Sequence record: NC_052983.1
Strand: one strand, 5' to 3'
Source: Escherichia phage E21
DNA length: 58,536 nucleotides
Shown: positions 17,791-31,410 of the stretch, in pieces
Layout of the letters: each line of letters begins with the position of its first letter
Position numbering within the stretch: position 1 is the first letter of the stretch
Translations under genes and position numbers: made by a program
Notes under the pieces: model-generated
The model's database searches: none
What the model saw: only the letters and a program-made list of their open reading frames with translations
Told to the model about the DNA's origin: nothing

Positions 17791-17819
17791 AATATAATGC
17801 TACCGCTTTCAGGTGTCAA
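17791..17819 (-). promoter_or_regulatory. sigma70-like promoter, cassette A (TTGACA-17-TATATT) with conserved leader
   Basis: Minus-strand TTGACAcctgaaagcggtagcatTATATT; ~85-bp cassette repeated near-identically at 19510..19590 and 21000..21075. Confidence 0.6.
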
Positions 17820-17898: not shown

Positions 17899-18120
17899 TT
17901 ACCGTGTGAGCATCGTAACCACGGATTTTTTAACCATTTCCAAGGAATCCCCGCCAAGGCTCACACCTTGCCCGCAGAAAGTCCACGGCTTGAGGTGGTG
18001 TGGTGTCTTGGCAATCGTCCCGATCCATACACCGCCCGCAACAACGTAATAAATATTTTCGCCTCGCTCTTGGTAAATCTCGATCGTCTTATCCAAGGTT
18101 GGATTATTTACCGGCTTCAT
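17899..18120 (-). CDS. hypothetical protein
   Basis: Track ORF 17899..18174 trimmed to internal Met (MKPVNN) to limit overlap with upstream gene. Confidence 0.35.
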   Translation of the reverse strand: MKPVNNPTLDKTIEIYQERGENIYYVVAGGVWIGTIAKTPHHLKPWTFCGQGVSLGGDSLEMVKKSVVTMLTR

Positions 18121-18754
18121 TTTCTCCCCCTTTAATCTTAACGAGTTCTTGCTTGTACTCGGATCCGAGCACATAATTTTTATTTTCTTCCTTGGGATAA
18201 GGCAATACCGGATATCGAAGCAACTTTTTATACTTCTTCACGACCGAACGGCTCCCCGTAAAATAAACGTAACGATGCTTAGATGTTCTGACTTGTCGAT
18301 ACGTCTTGCTTTCCTTTCCTTGATAATGCCGAGAGTGTTTACCTTGCTCCGTGTATTTATCGGTGCGCGCTTTCGTCGCCCCCGTGTAGATGAAATTAGA
18401 CGCTTGATAAATATATCCGTTGTGGTTCATACCGCGATCCGCATACGACACGATGACAAGGTTTTCACTTTTCAACTCAGCCATAGCGAAGGCGATCAAC
18501 TGCGACGGAGCGTTACGGATTGGACGAATAAAACAAAGTCGGTTTAACTCAAAAACGTGGCTTTTGTACTCCTCGCCCAATATTCCAACACATAGCGGGT
18601 TGCTGGCCGGCTTACCGATAGTTAGAACCCCGACAAGCTCCTCGTCTTCGAAGAACCCGAAAGCGTAAGATATGCTAGGTCGACGTTTCGCATAATGGTA
18701 GTTTAGGATTATGTCTAAACAGTCTTTAGGATCAACGCGTCTCATCGTGTACAC
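18104..18754 (-). CDS. hypothetical protein with GNAT-like C-terminal motif (possible acyltransferase / Mom-like)
   Basis: 216 aa; ...IVSYADRGMNHNGYIYQASNFIYTG resembles GNAT motif B; assignment is tentative. Confidence 0.45.
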   Translation of the reverse strand: MYTMRRVDPKDCLDIILNYHYAKRRPSISYAFGFFEDEELVGVLTIGKPASNPLCVGILGEEYKSHVFELNRLCFIRPIRNAPSQLIAFAMAELKSENLVIVSYADRGMNHNGYIYQASNFIYTGATKARTDKYTEQGKHSRHYQGKESKTYRQVRTSKHRYVYFTGSRSVVKKYKKLLRYPVLPYPKEENKNYVLGSEYKQELVKIKGGENEAGK

Positions 18755-18757
18755 GTT

Positions 18758-19498
18758 TTAACCCTCCCACGTCCACGATTCTGAGGCGTCACGAACAATA
18801 ATTTCGGCCGGACGATTCGCGCGTATCGCAACGTCTTTACCATCAACGAAGTAGACCGCGAAAAAATGCCCGAACACGTCGCCATCTTTCACGTGGATTT
18901 CTCGCCCGTCGTCTTCGCAGTAGAACACTGTAAGCCCGTCAACTGATGCTTCGTTGTTCACTTCGAAACCAAGGCTTGACAGGCCGTCTAACAGTGGGCG
19001 CATTGTGTCGAAACTTTCAGGGAGTGACGCCAAGATCAAGGCGTCTAAATCGCTAACCGCGTTACGTTTAAGCGTCACACACCCGCCGATCGTGAAAGTT
19101 ATGTCCCAACCTTCGGCTTCTTCGCCACGGCTAAAAAATATGGCTTTTAATTCTTTCCCGTCGATTGTTTTCGCAAATGTTGTCGCTCCGTGAGATTTAT
19201 CAAGGTCTAAAGAGAACCCCAGCGCTTTCATTACGGCGATAGTTCGTGCGGATAAGTCCGCATCATTGGCCATATGACAGCTCGCACCATGATCGAACAC
19301 GCTCACCTCGACGCTCTCAAATAGGTAACGTGCTAGTGGAATGAATTTATCGAAATCCGCAATTAATGCTATCGCCCCCGATAATGTTTTAACATCGCCC
19401 ACCTTGGCGCGAGGGTTAACTGTCAAAATATAATTACGAACACTTTCGGGCATATCAAAAGGGCTGTTATCGGTTACAACGTTAGAAATGAAAGTCAT
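18758..19498 (-). CDS. hypothetical protein
   Basis: 246 aa; preceded by promoter cassette B and RBS GAGGA. Confidence 0.55.
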   Translation of the reverse strand: MTFISNVVTDNSPFDMPESVRNYILTVNPRAKVGDVKTLSGAIALIADFDKFIPLARYLFESVEVSVFDHGASCHMANDADLSARTIAVMKALGFSLDLDKSHGATTFAKTIDGKELKAIFFSRGEEAEGWDITFTIGGCVTLKRNAVSDLDALILASLPESFDTMRPLLDGLSSLGFEVNNEASVDGLTVFYCEDDGREIHVKDGDVFGHFFAVYFVDGKDVAIRANRPAEIIVRDASESWTWEG

Positions 19499-19552
19499 GA
19501 TTTAAATCCTCAAAACTGGTTTAAGTTTCCGGTTCGTTCCGGCGATGTGAGT

Positions 19553-19581
19553 AATATAATACTACCGCTTTCAGGTGTCAA
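19553..19581 (-). promoter_or_regulatory. sigma70-like promoter, cassette B (TTGACA-17-TATATT)
   Basis: Near-identical to cassettes A and C. Confidence 0.6.
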
Positions 19582-19609
19582 CAAGTTTTTTATAAATATT
19601 TTAGGCAAT

Positions 19610-19650
19610 AAAAAACCTCTTACCGTGGCACCGAATAAGAGGTTTTAGTT
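19610..19650 (-). terminator. rho-independent terminator (structurally bidirectional)
   Basis: CCUCUUA-13 nt loop-UAAGAGG; U6 on minus strand, UUUUAGUU on plus. Confidence 0.65.
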
Positions 19651-19729
19651 ACTAACTTGTTTTCATGTTTTCAAATCAAGGCTATATTAACGGATATTTT
19701 TCAACTTGTAAACAATAAATTTCTCAGCG

Positions 19730-19758
19730 GAAAAGAAAAAAGCCCGCATATACGGGCT
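19730..19758 (-). terminator. rho-independent terminator
   Basis: Minus RNA AGCCCG-UAUAUG-CGGGCU followed by UUUUUCUUUUCC. Confidence 0.65.
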
Positions 19759-20047
19759 TAAAATATAAGGCTTAATGACCTAAAATTACGCAAACTTTAC
19801 GAAGTGTGGCACAAGCAACCCAAATCAACCAACGGATGCGAACTTATCCACCGTTGAGCCGAACAATAACACCGTTACGTGGTGCTGTCAAGCGTCGCTA
19901 CACATAGCCCAATTGAACCGCGCCACGGTGAATATATCCCACAGGATACGCACTTTAATCGAAACAAAACTAGCCCGTTACTACTGCGAGCCTCAGATCT
20001 AAACGGCTTACCGCATGAACAATAATACCAGTTTTTCTTTTCCCTGA

Positions 20048-21029: not shown

Positions 21030-21058
21030 AATATAATACTACCGCTTTCAGGTGTCAA
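21030..21058 (-). promoter_or_regulatory. sigma70-like promoter, cassette C (TTGACA-17-TATATT)
   Basis: Near-identical to cassettes A and B. Confidence 0.6.
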
Positions 21059-22253: not shown

Positions 22254-22282
22254 ATATTAGCAACACCTCGGGCCGGTGTCAA
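22254..22282 (-). promoter_or_regulatory. sigma70-like promoter D (TTGACA-17-TAATAT), shares the -35/upstream element of cassettes A-C
   Basis: Minus-strand TTGACAccggcccgaggtgttgcTAATAT. Confidence 0.45.
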
Positions 22283-22620: not shown

Positions 22621-22649
22621 TTGACACCGCAAACAGGTTAGATTAGTAT
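22621..22649 (+). promoter_or_regulatory. sigma70-like promoter of plus-strand early operon (TTGACA-17-TAGTAT)
   Basis: TTGACAccgcaaacaggttagatTAGTAT, then RBS AAGGGG and ATG 22691. Confidence 0.5.
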
Positions 22650-25467: not shown

Positions 25468-25503
25468 TTGACACCTTGCGGGGGATTAGTTACGATTCCC
25501 CCG
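25468..25503 (+). promoter_or_regulatory. sigma70-like promoter (TTGACA-17-TACGAT) overlapped by a 7-bp inverted repeat (operator-like)
   Basis: TTGACAccttgcgggggattagtTACGAT; inverted repeat CGGGGGA..11 nt..TCCCCCG spans the -10. Confidence 0.45.
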
Positions 25504-25526: not shown

Positions 25527-26345
25527 ATGATTAAACTTATGCACTATGCGGATTACGACTACCGCGACCCAAGTAAACATGAACACCGAATATTCCCGGT
25601 TCCGGCCGGAATTAGAGTCGGGGTGATCATTAAACGCGTTAAGTCCATCGCGAACCCAACAAAGATTGAGGTGTGGCAATACGACGAAAAAGGTAACGCG
25701 ATTACTGACCTTACCGGCTTCGCCCCACACATCGAGGAAATATGTTTAAAAGCGTACCAATGGCTTACAGAACATACATTATCTCTATCCGGGATCTCTG
25801 ATACTGAGTCCGATGCGTATGACTCCGGGATCGTAATCGATGGGTATTTCCAAGATATCCGTCCCAACTATGGAACGGCCGACGAGACATTAGACCAGTT
25901 GGAAGAATGGTTATTAGATGAATTCGAGACGACGGACGAAACTAAAACCATATTTCAATATCTGGCCGTTACGACCTACGAGTCAGCGCTTCGCGGTAAA
26001 GACGGTAAAGACATTCATCTACGCCGTTCTAACCTACGCCATGCGTTGTGCGCATCGAACAATGCTGACCACACCCGAGCAAATATCTCTGTCTCGGATA
26101 ATGTGCCACGTTTTACCGTGTGGCCGATGTCTATGTCACCTCGTTCTTGGGATATGAGCAAGCCCGGCCCGAACGCTTGGGACTCCATGGCGGGCGTCGC
26201 AGCACCAAGAGGTCAACAATTCGAAGACCAGTTAAATACATGCTTTGAGCGCGGTTTTATCGGCGGGCTAGATATGCGAGCGTTTCACGGCTGGAATACA
26301 AGAGTTACCGCGTACCAGTTTATTACTGAGGACGCAACGTTATGA
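25527..26345 (+). CDS. hypothetical protein
   Basis: 272-aa ORF; RBS AAGAGG. Confidence 0.5.
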   Translation: MIKLMHYADYDYRDPSKHEHRIFPVPAGIRVGVIIKRVKSIANPTKIEVWQYDEKGNAITDLTGFAPHIEEICLKAYQWLTEHTLSLSGISDTESDAYDSGIVIDGYFQDIRPNYGTADETLDQLEEWLLDEFETTDETKTIFQYLAVTTYESALRGKDGKDIHLRRSNLRHALCASNNADHTRANISVSDNVPRFTVWPMSMSPRSWDMSKPGPNAWDSMAGVAAPRGQQFEDQLNTCFERGFIGGLDMRAFHGWNTRVTAYQFITEDATL

Positions 26346-27552: not shown

Positions 27553-28177
27553 GTTAGATGAAGTACGCAAATTATCATACTCGTTCAAACTGCCCGAAGA
27601 TGTCCGAGAGGGAACCTATGTAGTTTTACGCTTCGAATCTGAGGTAGGAAAGTGGTATCAGAACGCAAATATTGTTAGCTATATGCTCGGTGTTATCAGC
27701 CACACTACTAAGACACAATTCCAAGTTTCTTGTGAGGGTTTATCCTCCCCGATGCGTTTCGGGCGCGATGGCGGTATCCGCGCAGACAGCAAGGGACAAG
27801 TTGGTGGCGCACTAAGAACGTCAGTATTCCTTGCCGGTAGTGCAGATACCGCAGAAGAATACATCAAGGGCCAAGTAGAACAACACAACGACCCCGAAGT
27901 AGTAAGACGCGAGCCAACGTTCCACTTAAAAAATGCTGACGATTTGATAGGTATCATCGTCAAGCTGGACAAGCTGATAAACGATGCGACAACGCTATGG
28001 GGCGCAATACCTGAAAAATGGAAAGGCCGAGAGCAACGACGTAGCCGAAACGACCGAATACCGCATGATATGTTAGTAGCGATCTTGTGTAATCCGGACG
28101 CATCGGACATATTAGCAGACCTATTTAAGTCCATAGCTAAAGCATTCGGAGTATCAACCAAAAAAGAGGAAGAATGA
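27545..28177 (+). CDS. hypothetical protein
   Basis: 210-aa ORF. Confidence 0.5.
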   Translation: MTKLDEVRKLSYSFKLPEDVREGTYVVLRFESEVGKWYQNANIVSYMLGVISHTTKTQFQVSCEGLSSPMRFGRDGGIRADSKGQVGGALRTSVFLAGSADTAEEYIKGQVEQHNDPEVVRREPTFHLKNADDLIGIIVKLDKLINDATTLWGAIPEKWKGREQRRSRNDRIPHDMLVAILCNPDASDILADLFKSIAKAFGVSTKKEEE

Positions 28178-28914
28178 TGATCAATCCCTACGCGGTGGAA
28201 TTACAGAAATTGAAAGACGCCAAGAAACACATTCCAAAGCAGATAAAAGACCAATGGCGTACTCCGGACTGGCTTTTCTACGCGCTAAACTCTTTATACG
28301 GCCCGTTCTTGGTAGATTTGTTTTCAGATGGACAGAATGCTAAGTGCTCCCGGTATTTCATGGCCGAGGATAATGCGCTACAACAGAACTGGAAAGAAGC
28401 ACTAGAAGACGCCAAGTTTGAATTCCTTATCGATGCAGACTGTGCGGGGTACGATGCTACTGACGATCTAAAGACGGCCAAGTGTTTTGCTAACCCGCCA
28501 TACAGCCCGGCTAAGTATATCGGTAAAGGGCGTAAGAATAGAATACCGCTCTGTGGTATGCGAAATATCATGGCTAAGGCCTACGAGGAACACAAGGCCG
28601 GTTGCCCTTCATTCTGGTTGCTTAAATCCGCCACGTCAGAAGATTGGTGGCCTAACGAGACCGCAAGCCAGATAATCCACATCAAGGGTAGAATTGCTTT
28701 CGAGAAACCGGTGTGGTTTAGAGATGAGGTCGTAGACCGCGTGGAAAGTAGTGCTGCTTTCGGTGCGTCCGTTGCTATTTTTAACGGAATAAACGATATT
28801 CAAGAACCGGAAGCCTACATCAGTCGAGATACCTTAAAATTAATAGGGGAGCCACTTGCTGAAATTAATGCGGAAAGACGCGCCGAGTGGATAGCTAGTT
28901 TCGACGATCTATAA
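28174..28914 (+). CDS. phage-type DNA N6-adenine methyltransferase
   Basis: N-terminal WRTPDWLF and catalytic-type FANPPY motifs typical of the phage Dam family; RBS GAGGAAGA. Confidence 0.7.
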   Translation: MMINPYAVELQKLKDAKKHIPKQIKDQWRTPDWLFYALNSLYGPFLVDLFSDGQNAKCSRYFMAEDNALQQNWKEALEDAKFEFLIDADCAGYDATDDLKTAKCFANPPYSPAKYIGKGRKNRIPLCGMRNIMAKAYEEHKAGCPSFWLLKSATSEDWWPNETASQIIHIKGRIAFEKPVWFRDEVVDRVESSAAFGASVAIFNGINDIQEPEAYISRDTLKLIGEPLAEINAERRAEWIASFDDL

Positions 28915-28919
28915 TTTAA

Positions 28920-28938
28920 GGGGGCCTTGTGGCCTCCC
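28920..28938 (+). other. stable stem-loop immediately 3' of the methyltransferase gene (no U-run)
   Basis: GGGGGCC-UUGU-GGCCUCCC, 7 bp with one G.U. Confidence 0.35.
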
Positions 28939-29155
28939 TATTAAAAGGTAAATCCCGTGAAAATTCTAAAGTATACATTGCTTGTGTTGATTGTGATTTC
29001 TGCGGTTGTCGGCTCATACATGGCAATACGATCAACCTCATGCGCGGAGTATGGCCAGAAGAACAAAGTTGCGACCGAATACTCATTGTACGAGGGTTGT
29101 GTGATAAAAAACTCCGGCCACCCGTAAAAAAGTTCACCTCAAGCGAGAAAAATAG

Positions 29156-29184
29156 TTGACACCGCGATCCGGAGTCGATAGTAT
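29156..29184 (+). promoter_or_regulatory. sigma70-like promoter (TTGACA-17-TAGTAT), same family as 22621
   Basis: TTGACAccgcgatccggagtcgaTAGTAT, then RBS AAGGGGG and ATG 29216. Confidence 0.5.
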
Positions 29185-29215
29185 ACCCCTACACCAAGAG
29201 ATAAGGGGGTACGAC

Positions 29216-29749
29216 ATGGATCATAAGTACAAGGTTTCGGACAGGAATACCGTCGCCCGAGTAGTGGGCCGTCATCGCCAATGGTGCGACGCATACGTTG
29301 AGGTAAAACGTATCGTTCGTGAAATGTCCGAAAAAGGGATAACCGATCTGGAAGTTGACGCGATGCCGATCCACGCGCACCTAAACCGGATTGCTGGTTT
29401 CAACTCATTTTTTGCCAACACTCAAAACGAATGGTGGCTAAGATTTAGACCATTTGAAGCCTACCCACAAGATAACGGGAAGACGCTAATTAAGTACCGC
29501 GACTCCCACCCGTGTAACATCTGGCGAAAAGTAGAAAAGATGGAATTCGACCGAGAAGATTTAGAACGAAGAATAAGTCGTATCGAACAAATATTACAAG
29601 GACAGCCGGAAACAATCGCATACGATAGAAAAGTATTTCGAATTCGTAGAACACAAGAATTATCTCAAACCGGCATGTCAAACCGAAAAGCGAGAAAAAT
29701 CGCATGGGAGGAAGCCGGTAGAGAATTCCCGGGAGAAGACCATGTTTGA
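29216..29749 (+). CDS. hypothetical protein
   Basis: Start moved from track call 29156 (which begins inside the promoter) to ATG 29216 (MDHKYK). Confidence 0.5.
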   Translation: MDHKYKVSDRNTVARVVGRHRQWCDAYVEVKRIVREMSEKGITDLEVDAMPIHAHLNRIAGFNSFFANTQNEWWLRFRPFEAYPQDNGKTLIKYRDSHPCNIWRKVEKMEFDREDLERRISRIEQILQGQPETIAYDRKVFRIRRTQELSQTGMSNRKARKIAWEEAGREFPGEDHV

Positions 29750-29993
29750 TGAAATACGGAGAATAAAACGGAAATATGAAATGTTGCCTCCCGGAGATAA
29801 CATACCTCTGTATGGCGATTTCATTGAGTTTAAGGACGAATTTAACGGAGCAACATATATTGGGGAGGTGTTAGATCACCATTTCAGTTCAACACCTCAC
29901 GATCAAATTTGGAATGTCTTCGTAGACGGCGTGACCATATCTGCGAAACAATCTGAGATAACAAGAGTATACCGACGCAAACGGAGAAAATAG
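29742..29993 (+). CDS. hypothetical protein
   Basis: 83-aa ORF. Confidence 0.4.
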   Translation: MFDEIRRIKRKYEMLPPGDNIPLYGDFIEFKDEFNGATYIGEVLDHHFSSTPHDQIWNVFVDGVTISAKQSEITRVYRRKRRK

Positions 29994-29994
29994 C

Positions 29995-30858
29995 ATGAAA
30001 GACCTAACAAAACCTTTAGTAGAAATCGATATCGACGTTAGAACGGATTACCTACCTCACGGTGTTTTATCCGTTGATATCAAAACCGAGGAAATATCTC
30101 ACGAACTAAAATCGTTACTAGCCGATACATTTGAAGCCATGGTAGTTCGTTTGATTTCTTCGGAGAGAAAATACCAAAGAGGGAACTCTTACCAGAACGA
30201 AGAACTAGCGCAAAGCGGTGAACTCGCATTCCGGATCGCCGACCGGCTTAAAAATTTCCAAGATATTGACGCCATGAATTTGATTATGTTTTCCATGTAC
30301 CATCAGGCGTATTCTGGACAACAAATTCATCTAATGGATAGTTGTATTAAAGATTTCCATCGCGGGGTGGTAGACGCGTATAACTTCATTGATTCTACTT
30401 GCCCTCCCGGTTGTGCTGAGGAAGCGTTCCGAACACTGCTTATGAGCGAGTTAGTCGACACTACCATGAAAGAACTCGGCAAAGGCGATAAAACCTCATA
30501 CAAGATGTTAGGTGGCGATACGGCCAAGTTATCCGTTAACCCCCCTAAGTCCCTAAAAGCATTTGCGGATCAACTAGGCGACGAGGAGCTTTACATCTAT
30601 AACATTCTAGGCATGAATTTTGTGATCCCATGGTGGGGCGATACCGTAGTAGCGAATAAGGAAAAACAACTACTCGTGTTCCCGGGTGTACCATATGTTG
30701 ATCGAGAGACCGATAGATGGCGTTCACCAGACTGTGAAGATTTCCAAAAAGACGGTCTCGTTATCGGCACAATAGATGTCTCGAAAGAAAGAGAATATCT
30801 CATTGATGGTTTTATTCTATCTCTGTCCGCATTCAACCGCAAACCGCTAGAGGGCTAA
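29995..30858 (+). CDS. hypothetical protein
   Basis: 287-aa ORF. Confidence 0.5.
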   Translation: MKDLTKPLVEIDIDVRTDYLPHGVLSVDIKTEEISHELKSLLADTFEAMVVRLISSERKYQRGNSYQNEELAQSGELAFRIADRLKNFQDIDAMNLIMFSMYHQAYSGQQIHLMDSCIKDFHRGVVDAYNFIDSTCPPGCAEEAFRTLLMSELVDTTMKELGKGDKTSYKMLGGDTAKLSVNPPKSLKAFADQLGDEELYIYNILGMNFVIPWWGDTVVANKEKQLLVFPGVPYVDRETDRWRSPDCEDFQKDGLVIGTIDVSKEREYLIDGFILSLSAFNRKPLEG

Positions 30859-30860
30859 AA

Positions 30861-31325
30861 ATGAAATTAGTATACATAGCTGGCCCATACCGCGCAGACA
30901 CCAAAGAGGGCGTGGCTGAAAATATCCGTAAGGCACAAGTAATCGGGCTATCTCTAACCACCAACGGACATACATTAGGGGTATTCCCCGTGATCCCTCA
31001 CATGAATACGGCGCACTTTGAGACCCACACTTTAACCGTATCACAAAAATTCAGCGCTTTTATTGAGCCGGTGCCAGATGAATACTGGCTACAAGGAACA
31101 ATGGCATTGATGGAAAAATGCGATGCGGTTTTATTGACGCACCCACAAGCCGGCATAACAAGCAAGGGAACGCGGGCGGAGGTTATGCGCGCTATTGAGT
31201 TGGGTATTCCTGTTTATGACCACATAAACGGTCTACTATCTGACCTTAGAGACGAATCAACGCCTCTACGAAGTATTAATGTTTTGAATGACAAGCGAGA
31301 ATTTCTCGGGGCGGTTGATGAGTGA
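30861..31325 (+). CDS. DUF4406-like / nucleoside 2-deoxyribosyltransferase-like protein
   Basis: N-terminal MKLVYIAGPYRA motif typical of this Rossmann-like family; RBS AGAGGG. Confidence 0.5.
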   Translation: MKLVYIAGPYRADTKEGVAENIRKAQVIGLSLTTNGHTLGVFPVIPHMNTAHFETHTLTVSQKFSAFIEPVPDEYWLQGTMALMEKCDAVLLTHPQAGITSKGTRAEVMRAIELGIPVYDHINGLLSDLRDESTPLRSINVLNDKREFLGAVDE

Positions 31326-31391: not shown

Positions 31392-31410
31392 AAGGGGCGT
31401 AATGCCCCTT
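31392..31410. terminator. bidirectional rho-independent terminator at the convergent junction of the plus early operon and the minus lysis/structural operon
   Basis: AAGGGGC-GUAAU-GCCCCUU perfect 7-bp stem; U-rich on both sides. Confidence 0.7.

Follow-up and report, generated by a model that had tools for sequence, protein, structure and literature searches.

The Dam proteins of phages VT-2 and HP1 are specific for GATC. Both phages are among those that carry genes for Dam-like proteins (PMC7556043). We found no solved structure for any member of the phage Dam family. A second group of proteins relevant here shares the fold of the nucleoside 2'-deoxyribosyltransferases (NDTs) and of DNPH1, in which Tyr24, Asp80 and Glu104 form a triad, Ser98 binds phosphate and Glu104 is the nucleophile (PMC10483697). 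The families DUF7768, DUF4406 and DUF1937 have no assigned function, so that membership of them yields no mechanism.

The window analyzed here, a stretch of 58,536 nucleotides from the record of Escherichia phage E21 (NC_052983.1), is a complete Proteus phage genome of the genus Lavrentievavirus (Casjensviridae). An initial annotation made from the sequence had described a Dam-family methyltransferase gene and a DUF4406-like gene spanning positions 28174-31325, and both open reading frames lie exactly there: the first gene occupies 28174-28914 (+ strand, 246 aa) and the last 30861-31325 (+ strand, 154 aa; hereafter the NDT-like gene). Across 100% of its length, the region shares 97-99% identity with Proteus phages PLY284, P2-71, DanisaurMW and pPM_01, in whose records both genes are annotated likewise, and the two genes are 97-100% identical to named genes in more than 20 deposited Proteus phage genomes. 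Both are real, correctly placed, ordinary and already known; they belong to large families, to which the window itself adds little. We consider it highly probable that the locus holds a Dam-family methyltransferase and, in a separate unit, an independent DUF7768 protein of the NDT fold. They would be accessory genes of a lytic Proteus siphovirus, each independent of the other, and would form no two-gene system.

The product of 28174..28914 (+) clearly belongs to the phage Dam family, and its profile matches and motifs predict an orphan, SAM-dependent N6-adenine DNA methyltransferase. It matches Pfam PF05869 (E 9.1e-30; 104 bits, cut-off 28.1), the NCBIfam equivalog model TIGR01712, "phage N-6-adenine-methyltransferase" (117.1 bits, cut-off 97.05), phrog_111 (E 1.2e-61) and the PADLOC model MTase_II (E 1.6e-44). 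No nuclease is adjacent to it, and searches of the neighbouring genes with Pfam and PADLOC models found neither a nuclease nor another defence domain. Three sequence blocks can be located in the translation. WRTPDW (aa 28-33; 28255..28272, +) belongs to the N-terminal block DQWRTP, in which D26, Q27, W28 and T30 are invariant in an alignment of 34 homologues. The same alignment has D48, L49, F50 and D52 invariant in the D-L-F-x-D block DLFSD (aa 48-52; 28315..28329, +), presumably the SAM-binding motif I, and N107, P108, P109, Y110 and S111 invariant around NPPY (aa 107-110; 28492..28503, +), a catalytic motif IV of the (D/N)PP(Y/F) type. Because these columns are invariant or nearly so across 34 sequences, WRTPDW and NPPY are family signatures and not chance tetrapeptides.

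The AF2 model of this protein (pLDDT 93.8) has a predicted fold resembling class I SAM-dependent N6-adenine methyltransferases, with DLFSD where the first beta strand (E45-48) ends. Its best PDB matches are the N6-adenine methyltransferases PCIF1, TrmM, HsdM and M.TaqI, at TM scores of only 0.3-0.4. PF05869, TIGR01712 and the predicted fold thus agree with the N6-adenine methyltransferase that had been proposed from WRTPDW and NPPY. Several RefSeq records mislabel the gene "phosphoadenosine phosphosulfate reductase".

The protein shares 46% identity with the chi-like phage Dam and 38% with the Stx2-phage enzyme. GATC, as in the characterized members, would be the most likely target; as an extrapolation from relatives at no more than 38% identity, we give this assignment about an even chance. 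The genome contains 215 GATC sites against 245 +/- 16 expected, and the motif is neither enriched nor avoided. The enzyme would flip the target adenine into the NPPY pocket and methylate N6 on replicating phage DNA, so that progeny DNA would be fully methylated whatever the host Dam does. Such full methylation would shield the DNA from methylation-sensitive nucleases with GATC-containing cleavage sites, would avoid MutH cleavage, or both. Protection against restriction, which had been put forward as plausible, is a reasonable, putative role.

The host genus is probably Dam-positive itself, which makes the benefit of a phage copy less evident and GATC-directed restriction unlikely as the main threat. 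The enzyme could instead serve phage physiology, through expression timing, packaging-site recognition or the avoidance of MutH on unmethylated replicating DNA, and its maintenance across the Casjensviridae at 46% identity suggests a core function and not a strain-specific one. However, the promoters examined show no GATC cluster, there is none in 19292-19995 upstream of a Mom-like unit, and a regulatory role has no direct evidence. We regard such a physiological role as somewhat unlikely; it is also compatible with protection, as the two are not mutually exclusive.

The two genes had been assigned to the end of one early operon. The NDT-like gene is indeed the last gene on the + strand: it is followed by a hairpin at 31392-31410 and then by a convergent lysis cassette on the - strand. 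A single operon, however, does not fit the + strand block, which is split by a strong extended promoter motif occurring three times, at 22621, 25468 and 29156. This motif has seven matches, against 0.03 expected by shuffling. The copy at 25468..25496 (+), a sigma-70-like promoter of the form TTGACACC-N7-GG-N6-TACGAT, lies in the intergenic gap before the gene at 25527 and heads the unit that ends with Dam. The copy at 29156..29184 (+), TTGACACC-N7-GG-N6-TAGTAT, lies in a gap 30 nt before the ribosome-binding site and ATG of the gene at 29216 and heads the last unit, of four genes.

Two hairpins accompany these promoters. Directly after the Dam stop codon there is a GC-rich hairpin without a T-run (28918..28940, +; -16.3 kcal/mol, z only -1.66), which is possibly a weak terminator or attenuator. 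The hairpin at 31392..31410, found on both strands (-13.4 and -15.1 kcal/mol; z -2.3 and -2.8), resembles a bidirectional terminator at the boundary between the + strand block and the lysis cassette. All of these promoter and terminator calls are pattern matches. Since the three motifs place Dam and the NDT-like gene in different units, we infer that the "operon" consists of at least three promoter-headed units, with Dam ending one and the NDT-like gene ending the next. Host RNA polymerase would transcribe the two genes from separate sigma-70-type promoters: the Dam transcript would start from 25468, and the NDT-like transcript from 29156, its gene being the last of four before the bidirectional terminator.

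The roughly 2 kb between the two genes hold a small ORF and three other genes, which the initial annotation did not mention. The small ORF (28957..29127, +; 56 aa, GTG start) has one hydrophobic stretch resembling a membrane helix and weak PHROG matches (E about 1e-3); a 57% identical ORF can be found in Providencia phage Kokobel1, and relatives annotate different coordinates. The 177-aa product of 29216..29749 (+) is conserved in related Morganellaceae phages, with 78% identity in the Kokobel1 locus and 62% in the Saba locus. It matches phrog_35002, of unknown function (E 6.6e-128), and no Pfam, NCBIfam or PADLOC model. An 83-aa protein (29742..29993, +) matches phrog_18367, also of unknown function (E 2.1e-8), with no significant Pfam match. 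The 287-aa product of 29995..30858 (+) is a near-ORFan with only four homologous clusters among 5.8 billion proteins; in relatives each half is a gene of its own, residues 33-160 and 179-282 matching two adjacent Saba genes.

The initial annotation had also linked phage proteins of the NDT-like type to nucleotide metabolism or DNA modification; taken as a hint, the second link would make Dam and the NDT-like protein, perhaps together with the intervening genes, one DNA hypermodification pathway. The two genes do share a strand and fit within 3.2 kb, and the block is kept in Lavrentievavirus, Kokobel1 and Saba-type phages. Nevertheless, between them are a promoter-like site and a hairpin, and the intervening proteins have no enzyme-like domains in Pfam or NCBIfam. 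Among 44 representative phage loci, only 10 have Dam no more than 6 kb from the NDT-like gene, in varying order and at distances from -7 to 4.9 kb, and we found no fixed partner gene for the NDT-like gene, the neighbours of which are heterogeneous. Normal digestion by EcoRI and HindIII has been reported for DNA of the near-identical phage RP6 (PMC10194311). With neither a fixed partner nor resistance of RP6 DNA to these enzymes, the link to DNA modification finds no support, and a shared hypermodification pathway is very improbable.

The NDT-like gene (30861..31325, +) encodes a DUF7768 protein of the NDT/DNPH1 fold, a putative N-glycosidase or transferase with Glu107 as its nucleophile. The protein starts MKLVYIAGPYRA; in an alignment of 42 homologues M1, Y5, A7, G8 and P9 of this segment are invariant, and Y10 is present in 41. 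It passes the DUF7768 model (PF24963) marginally, at 28.1 bits against a cut-off of 26, and homologues at 47-97% identity carry precomputed PF24963 assignments. The gene had been called DUF4406-like on account of this N-terminus, a call that failing profile searches were to refute. The profile search does not support the family: DUF4406 (PF14359) scores 13 bits against a cut-off of 22 (E 0.14), over residues 74-118 only. The superfamily was recognized correctly, in that the NDT-like fold is confirmed, the sister model DUF7768 is passed and NDTs are the best characterized structural neighbours. Many homologues match DUF7768, DUF4406 and DUF1937 jointly, although for this protein DUF1937 and PF05014 (16 bits against 28.8) also stay under their cut-offs. 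On these profile scores, the gene should be named a DUF7768/NDT-fold protein, and neither a DUF4406 protein nor a demonstrated nucleoside 2-deoxyribosyltransferase.

Tyr5, Ser101 and Glu107 are invariant among the homologues. In profile alignments, S101-x-G-T-x-x-E107 pairs with the D-x-G-T-x-x-E motif of Trypanosoma brucei NDT and with S-x-G-x-x-x-E of the protein of PDB entry 1t1j; Ser101 and Glu107 align with Ser98 and Glu104 of DNPH1, and Tyr5 with Tyr24. The sequence link to characterized enzymes is weak (hmmsearch E 0.014-0.07; hhalign probability 2.5%). By spacing and by hhalign, in an alignment of low confidence, the acid/base Asp (Asp80 of DNPH1, Asp72 of NDT) corresponds to Thr80, a column in which 32 of 42 homologues have Thr and 8 have Asp. 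The family has further invariant residues in His47, Asn49 and Cys87. Thr80 may mean that catalysis is impaired, that a different residue takes over, for example the invariant His47 or Asn49, or that the protein only binds a ligand.

At the position equivalent to Ser101, NDTs have an Asp that binds the 5'-OH (Asp92 of L. leichmannii NDT). Because the phage protein has a DNPH1-like Ser at this 5'-binding position and not the Asp of T. brucei NDT, a 5'-phosphorylated nucleotide would be a likelier substrate than a free nucleoside. We tentatively favour a nucleotide N-glycosidase, in which cleavage of the N-glycosidic bond would proceed by way of a covalent (deoxy)ribosyl-Glu107 intermediate; its most likely role would be to reshape or clean the nucleotide pool during infection.

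The name in GenBank and PHROG implies instead a genuine nucleoside 2'-deoxyribosyltransferase that exchanges bases between free deoxynucleosides for salvage. In keeping with this, the protein matches phrog_355, "nucleoside 2-deoxyribosyltransferase" (E 1.4e-20), its best characterized structural neighbours are such enzymes, the Tyr and the nucleophilic Glu are kept, and some phage NDTs of the PF05014 family are active transferases (bioRxiv 10.1101/2025.10.22.683976). However, the sub-threshold PF05014 score, the replacement of the T. brucei Asp by a Ser as in nucleotide-specific DNPH1, and the Thr at the acid/base position argue against it. In the same study two of three purified metagenome-derived NDTs showed no transfer with dA, dG or dZ, so that the family name is no guarantee of activity. 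We consider a true transferase unlikely.

The genomic neighbourhood of homologues raises another alternative, in which the DUF7768 protein is a counter-defence factor that hydrolyses or sequesters an immune signal or substrate derived from nucleotides, for instance the ADPR-derived signals of Thoeris, cyclic nucleotides or NAD-related compounds. In two related phage contigs a sponge gene lies directly upstream of the DUF7768 gene, with overlapping stop and start codons; one sponge is of the Acb2/Tad1-hairpin type (locus L003) and the other Tad2-like (locus L009). Other DUF7768 neighbours, including DNA methyltransferases and a weak Mom-family match, are of the kind that anti-restriction islands typically carry. 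Of 43 representative loci, however, only 2 have a sponge as neighbour, and these cases may just mark a variable accessory slot; moreover, the DUF7768 protein matched no PADLOC model, and its active-site pattern is closer to nucleotide N-glycosidases than to TIR NADases. We therefore view a counter-defence function as quite doubtful, and an equally doubtful extension of it would make DUF7768 proteins in general widespread phage nucleotide N-glycosidases that destroy either a nucleotide-derived immune signal or a toxic nucleotide produced by host defence. The DUF7768/DUF4406/DUF1937 group, which keeps a DNPH1-like Tyr/Ser/Glu active site, comprises about 16,000 (16,331) clusters at 50% identity, and a function assigned to this small, soluble-looking protein could extend to thousands of phage genes.

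Compared with known systems, the methyltransferase resembles the Dam proteins of coliphage T1, Haemophilus phage HP1 and the Stx2 phages VT-2 and 933W in passing both PF05869 and TIGR01712, in having the same invariant DQWxTP, DLFxD and NPPYS blocks, and in being a stand-alone phage gene with no partner nuclease. Relative to the core models PF05869 and TIGR01712, which span 165-169 positions, it has about 45 additional residues; these lie in insertions between DLFxD and NPPY and after NPPY, which close relatives share. The NDT-like protein resembles the PF05014 NDTs of Lactobacillus, Trypanosoma brucei and Chroococcidiopsis in its N-terminal Y-x-A-G-P strand and its G-T-x-x-E nucleophile motif, both of which align, and differs from them in its sub-cut-off score, in the Ser for the Asp of the T. 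brucei enzyme and in the Thr at the acid/base Asp. The S-x-G-x-x-x-E motif is common to it and PDB 1t1j, a hypothetical DUF1937 protein of Pseudomonas aeruginosa. For human and rat DNPH1 (Rcl), the 2'-deoxynucleoside 5'-phosphate N-hydrolase, the Tyr, the Ser that acts as 5'-phosphate ligand and the nucleophilic Glu have aligned equivalents in the phage protein, which differs in having Thr80 for Asp80 and additional invariant His47, Asn49 and Cys87; the profile match between the two is not significant.

Twenty-eight phage records match the 3.5 kb region around both genes, 23 of them covering at least 80% of the query; each of the matches listed (20 of 28) spans the entire query, with 96.6-99% identity. 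Almost all come from siphoviruses of Proteus mirabilis (PLY284, P2-71, DanisaurMW, pPM_01, PM87, RP6 and others), whose genomes of 58-59 kb are the same size as the window and whose records give Casjensviridae, genus Lavrentievavirus, as their taxonomy. These records already name one gene a DNA (N6-adenine) methyltransferase and the other a (putative) nucleoside 2-deoxyribosyltransferase (NDT) or nucleosidase, and the genes under study had therefore previously been deposited and named. There is nothing new in the genes, their names or their arrangement, all of which GenBank already has for numerous near-identical phages. Some matching records (OR699184-OR699187, OR506460 and others) are labelled as Salmonella, Enterococcus, Staphylococcus or Pseudomonas phages: four Salmonella and one Enterococcus record are among the matches listed, at 97-98% identity to the region, and the Staphylococcus and Pseudomonas records are among the other eight. 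Since such a host range is implausible for a single phage species, mislabelling or contamination is suggested.

The initial annotation placed both open reading frames (ORFs) exactly, at 28174-28914 (plus strand, 246 aa) and 30861-31325 (plus strand, 154 aa), and it correctly called the first an adenine methyltransferase. The encoded protein matches the Pfam Dam family PF05869 (104 bits, E = 9.1e-30) and scores 117.1 bits against the NCBIfam equivalog TIGR01712, "phage N-6-adenine-methyltransferase", which has a cut-off of 97.05. PADLOC assigns it as a type II methyltransferase, and no nuclease-like gene was found by PADLOC among its neighbours. The motifs that had suggested this function, WRTPDW and NPPY, were located at residues 28-33 and 107-110, and fall in invariant blocks (DQW-T, DLF-D and NPPYS) of an alignment of 34 homologues. 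The nearest PDB folds to an AlphaFold model built from the family alignment (pLDDT 93.8) are PCIF1/CAPAM, TrmM, type I HsdM and M.TaqI, with TM-scores of just 0.3-0.4; all four are SAM-dependent N6-adenine methyltransferases. A direct sequence search against the PDB returned chance matches only and no true chain, and a solved structure seems to be absent for the Dam family. The protein extends about 45 residues beyond the core models and its close relatives are likewise long (220-300 aa). Identity is 46% with the Dam proteins of chi-like phages of Salmonella, Klebsiella and Serratia, and 38% with those of Stx2-converting phages. Its profile matches and fold model show the product of 28174-28914 to be a member of the phage Dam family of N6-adenine methyltransferases.

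This gene is called "phosphoadenosine phosphosulfate reductase" in NC_028812, NC_052981, OR672055, NC_052979 and others, comprising several RefSeq and pharokka-style records. The protein matches phrog_33262 through its C-terminal Dam part alone (profile positions 285-482 of 495), and the label is explained by phrog_33262 being a fusion family. Judged by this match, the reductase name is a propagated misannotation.

Characterised Dam members from T1, HP1 and VT-2 methylate GATC. Avoidance or enrichment of this site was sought in the window as a clue to the specificity of the enzyme, and the count of 215, against 245 +/- 16 expected, was not significant. EcoRI and HindIII both cut the DNA of RP6, a near-identical phage (PMC10194311), which argues against indiscriminate adenine methylation. 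We infer that GATC may be the target of the Dam enzyme and that its role would be protective for the phage.

The phage also encodes a full-length Mom-like DNA modification protein (18104-18754, minus strand; PF25680, E = 1.6e-35; phrog_1384, E = 1.5e-69), whose counterpart relatives already annotate as Mom-like. The phage may therefore carry Mu-type N6-carbamoylmethyl-adenine as a further adenine modification in addition to methylation by Dam. Mu-style control of the Mom-like gene by Dam is not evident, because GATC sites, single or clustered, are absent just upstream of the gene's promoter at 19581.

Seven copies of an extended sigma-70-type motif, TTGACACC-N7-GG-N6-TAnnAT, are present in the window (0.03 expected from shuffling), and all of them are confined to 12 kb (17.8-29.2 kb). 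Four are on the minus strand (17791-17819, 19553-19581, 21030-21058 and 22254-22282) and three on the plus strand (22621-22649, 25468-25496 and 29156-29184); together they split a divergent, putatively early region into short units. Each plus-strand copy lies in a gap ahead of a gene block, with an A-tract upstream of it, and the plus-strand block therefore comprises three or more predicted units. The predicted unit that starts at 25468 has Dam as its final gene, and a GC-rich hairpin without a T-run (z -1.66) lies 3' of Dam. The predicted unit from 29156 contains the genes at 29216-29749, 29742-29993 and 29995-30858 and the NDT-like gene, and is closed by a bidirectional terminator-like hairpin (31392-31410, both strands; pattern scan and folding), beyond which lie convergent spanin, endolysin and holin genes. 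Placing both genes at the end of the early operon, as was done earlier, is sound as geography and fails in detail, since at least three promoter-headed units are predicted. No tRNA gene and no Rfam family was found on scanning the window.

The start and frame of the short gene after Dam (28929-29159 and 28957-29127 in the window) differ between the annotations of relatives. We consider the 56-aa frame with a GTG start at 28957 (28957-29127, plus strand) more likely to be the real gene, given its 57% conservation in Providencia phage Kokobel1, a hydrophobic stretch resembling a membrane helix and weak PHROG matches. The three plus-strand ORFs that follow (29216-29749, 29742-29993 and 29995-30858) carry no recognisable domain and had no matches in Pfam, NCBIfam or PADLOC. 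The last encodes a 287-aa near-ORFan with only four homologous clusters in a large protein database. Its residues 33-160 and 179-282 match adjacent but separate genes of Proteus phage Saba (5131-5646 and 5636-6001 of the Saba locus, L013), and a 122-aa Kokobel1 gene aligns with residues 4-111; on these alignments, the protein is modular.

Eighty viral loci were retrieved, and removing redundancy among all loci left 44 representatives. A recurring partner of the DUF7768 gene was sought by searching six heuristically picked same-strand ORFs, three on each side of it, against Pfam at 43 representative phage loci; each neighbour family was present in at most three. DNA methyltransferases were commonest (C5 and N6_N4 three times each, Dam twice), followed by replication and recombination genes (SSB, RdgC, RusA, primases and helicases), with one occurrence each of MazG and dNMP kinase. 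A PF05869-type Dam gene lies within 6 kb of the DUF7768 gene in 10 of the 44 representatives, on either side and at distances from overlapping to 4.9 kb. With co-occurrence at so few loci and in changing order, we rejected a functional Dam/NDT pair; their proximity reflects common descent of chi-like phages. The proposed link of the NDT-like gene to DNA modification found no evidence in this analysis. At a 102 kb contig (L007, 3788-6321), a DUF4406/DUF7768 gene directly follows a 738-aa fusion of Helicase_C and N6_N4 methyltransferase, with DUF5131 and a weak Mom-family gene nearby, and this neighbourhood looks like a DNA-modification island.

Acb2/Tad1-hairpin and Tad2-like proteins are sponges of immune signalling nucleotides. 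In two related metagenomic phage contigs of 65-68 kb, such a gene lies directly upstream of the DUF7768 gene with overlapping stop and start codons: an 82-aa Acb2/Tad1-hairpin protein in one (L003, 5753-6411) and a 176-aa Tad2-like protein in the other (L009, 5468-6411). This slot holds alternative anti-defence sponges, and it is because of these neighbours that we weigh a counter-defence role, for this protein or across the widespread family, in which DUF7768 proteins would hydrolyse or sequester a nucleotide-derived immune signal. With just two of 43 loci in its favour, such a role seems improbable, and we prefer to read the protein as a putative NDT-like enzyme.

The initial annotation assigned this last gene to DUF4406, and the profile check came out against that family (13 bits, cut-off 22), although the NDT-like superfamily was correctly recognised. 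The protein narrowly passes DUF7768 (PF24963; 28.1 bits against 26), matches PHROG 355, nucleoside 2-deoxyribosyltransferase (E = 1.4e-20), and falls below the cut-offs of the true NDT model (16 bits against 28.8) and of DUF1937 (17.7 against 23). Its homologues often match DUF7768, DUF4406 and DUF1937 simultaneously, and these are therefore overlapping models of one superfamily. Foldseek matched its AlphaFold model (pLDDT 89) to NDTs and DNPH1/Rcl with probability 1.0; a direct sequence search against the PDB gave chance matches only, and a profile search with the family gave weak yet consistent alignments to NDT and 1t1j. Scanning all 1.84 billion representatives gave 16,331 family clusters with E <= 1e-3, of which 5,723 reach E <= 1e-10. 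HNH_3, the one fusion found in ten longer members, is uninformative on function. The remaining interest lies in the chemistry of this family.

The protein begins with MKLVYIAGPYRA, in which M1, Y5, A7, G8 and P9 are invariant among 42 homologues; P46, H47, N49, C87, S101, G103, E107 and A111 are also invariant in the family. In family-profile alignments, its S101-x-G-T-x-x-E107 corresponds to D-x-G-T-x-x-E of Trypanosoma brucei NDT and to S-x-G-x-x-x-E of 1t1j. An hhalign comparison of low probability pairs Ser98, Glu104 and Asp80 of DNPH1 with S101, E107 and Thr80. The proposed nucleophile of DNPH1 is Glu104, tuned by Tyr24; Asp80 is the proposed acid/base and Ser98 a 5'-phosphate binder (PMC10483697). 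A catalytic role for DNPH1 His56, which would have corresponded to His47 of the phage protein, was dropped, as this source does not support it. The NDT-like protein would be an N-glycosidase or transferase working via a ribosyl-Glu107 intermediate, and its substrate is more likely to be a 5'-phosphorylated nucleotide than a nucleoside; the catalytic competence of this putative enzyme is uncertain. Relative to DNPH1, the Tyr, the Glu and a phosphate-type Ser are kept, whereas the Asp position is occupied by Thr, as in 32 of 42 homologues, with Asp in eight, DUF4406-like members among them.
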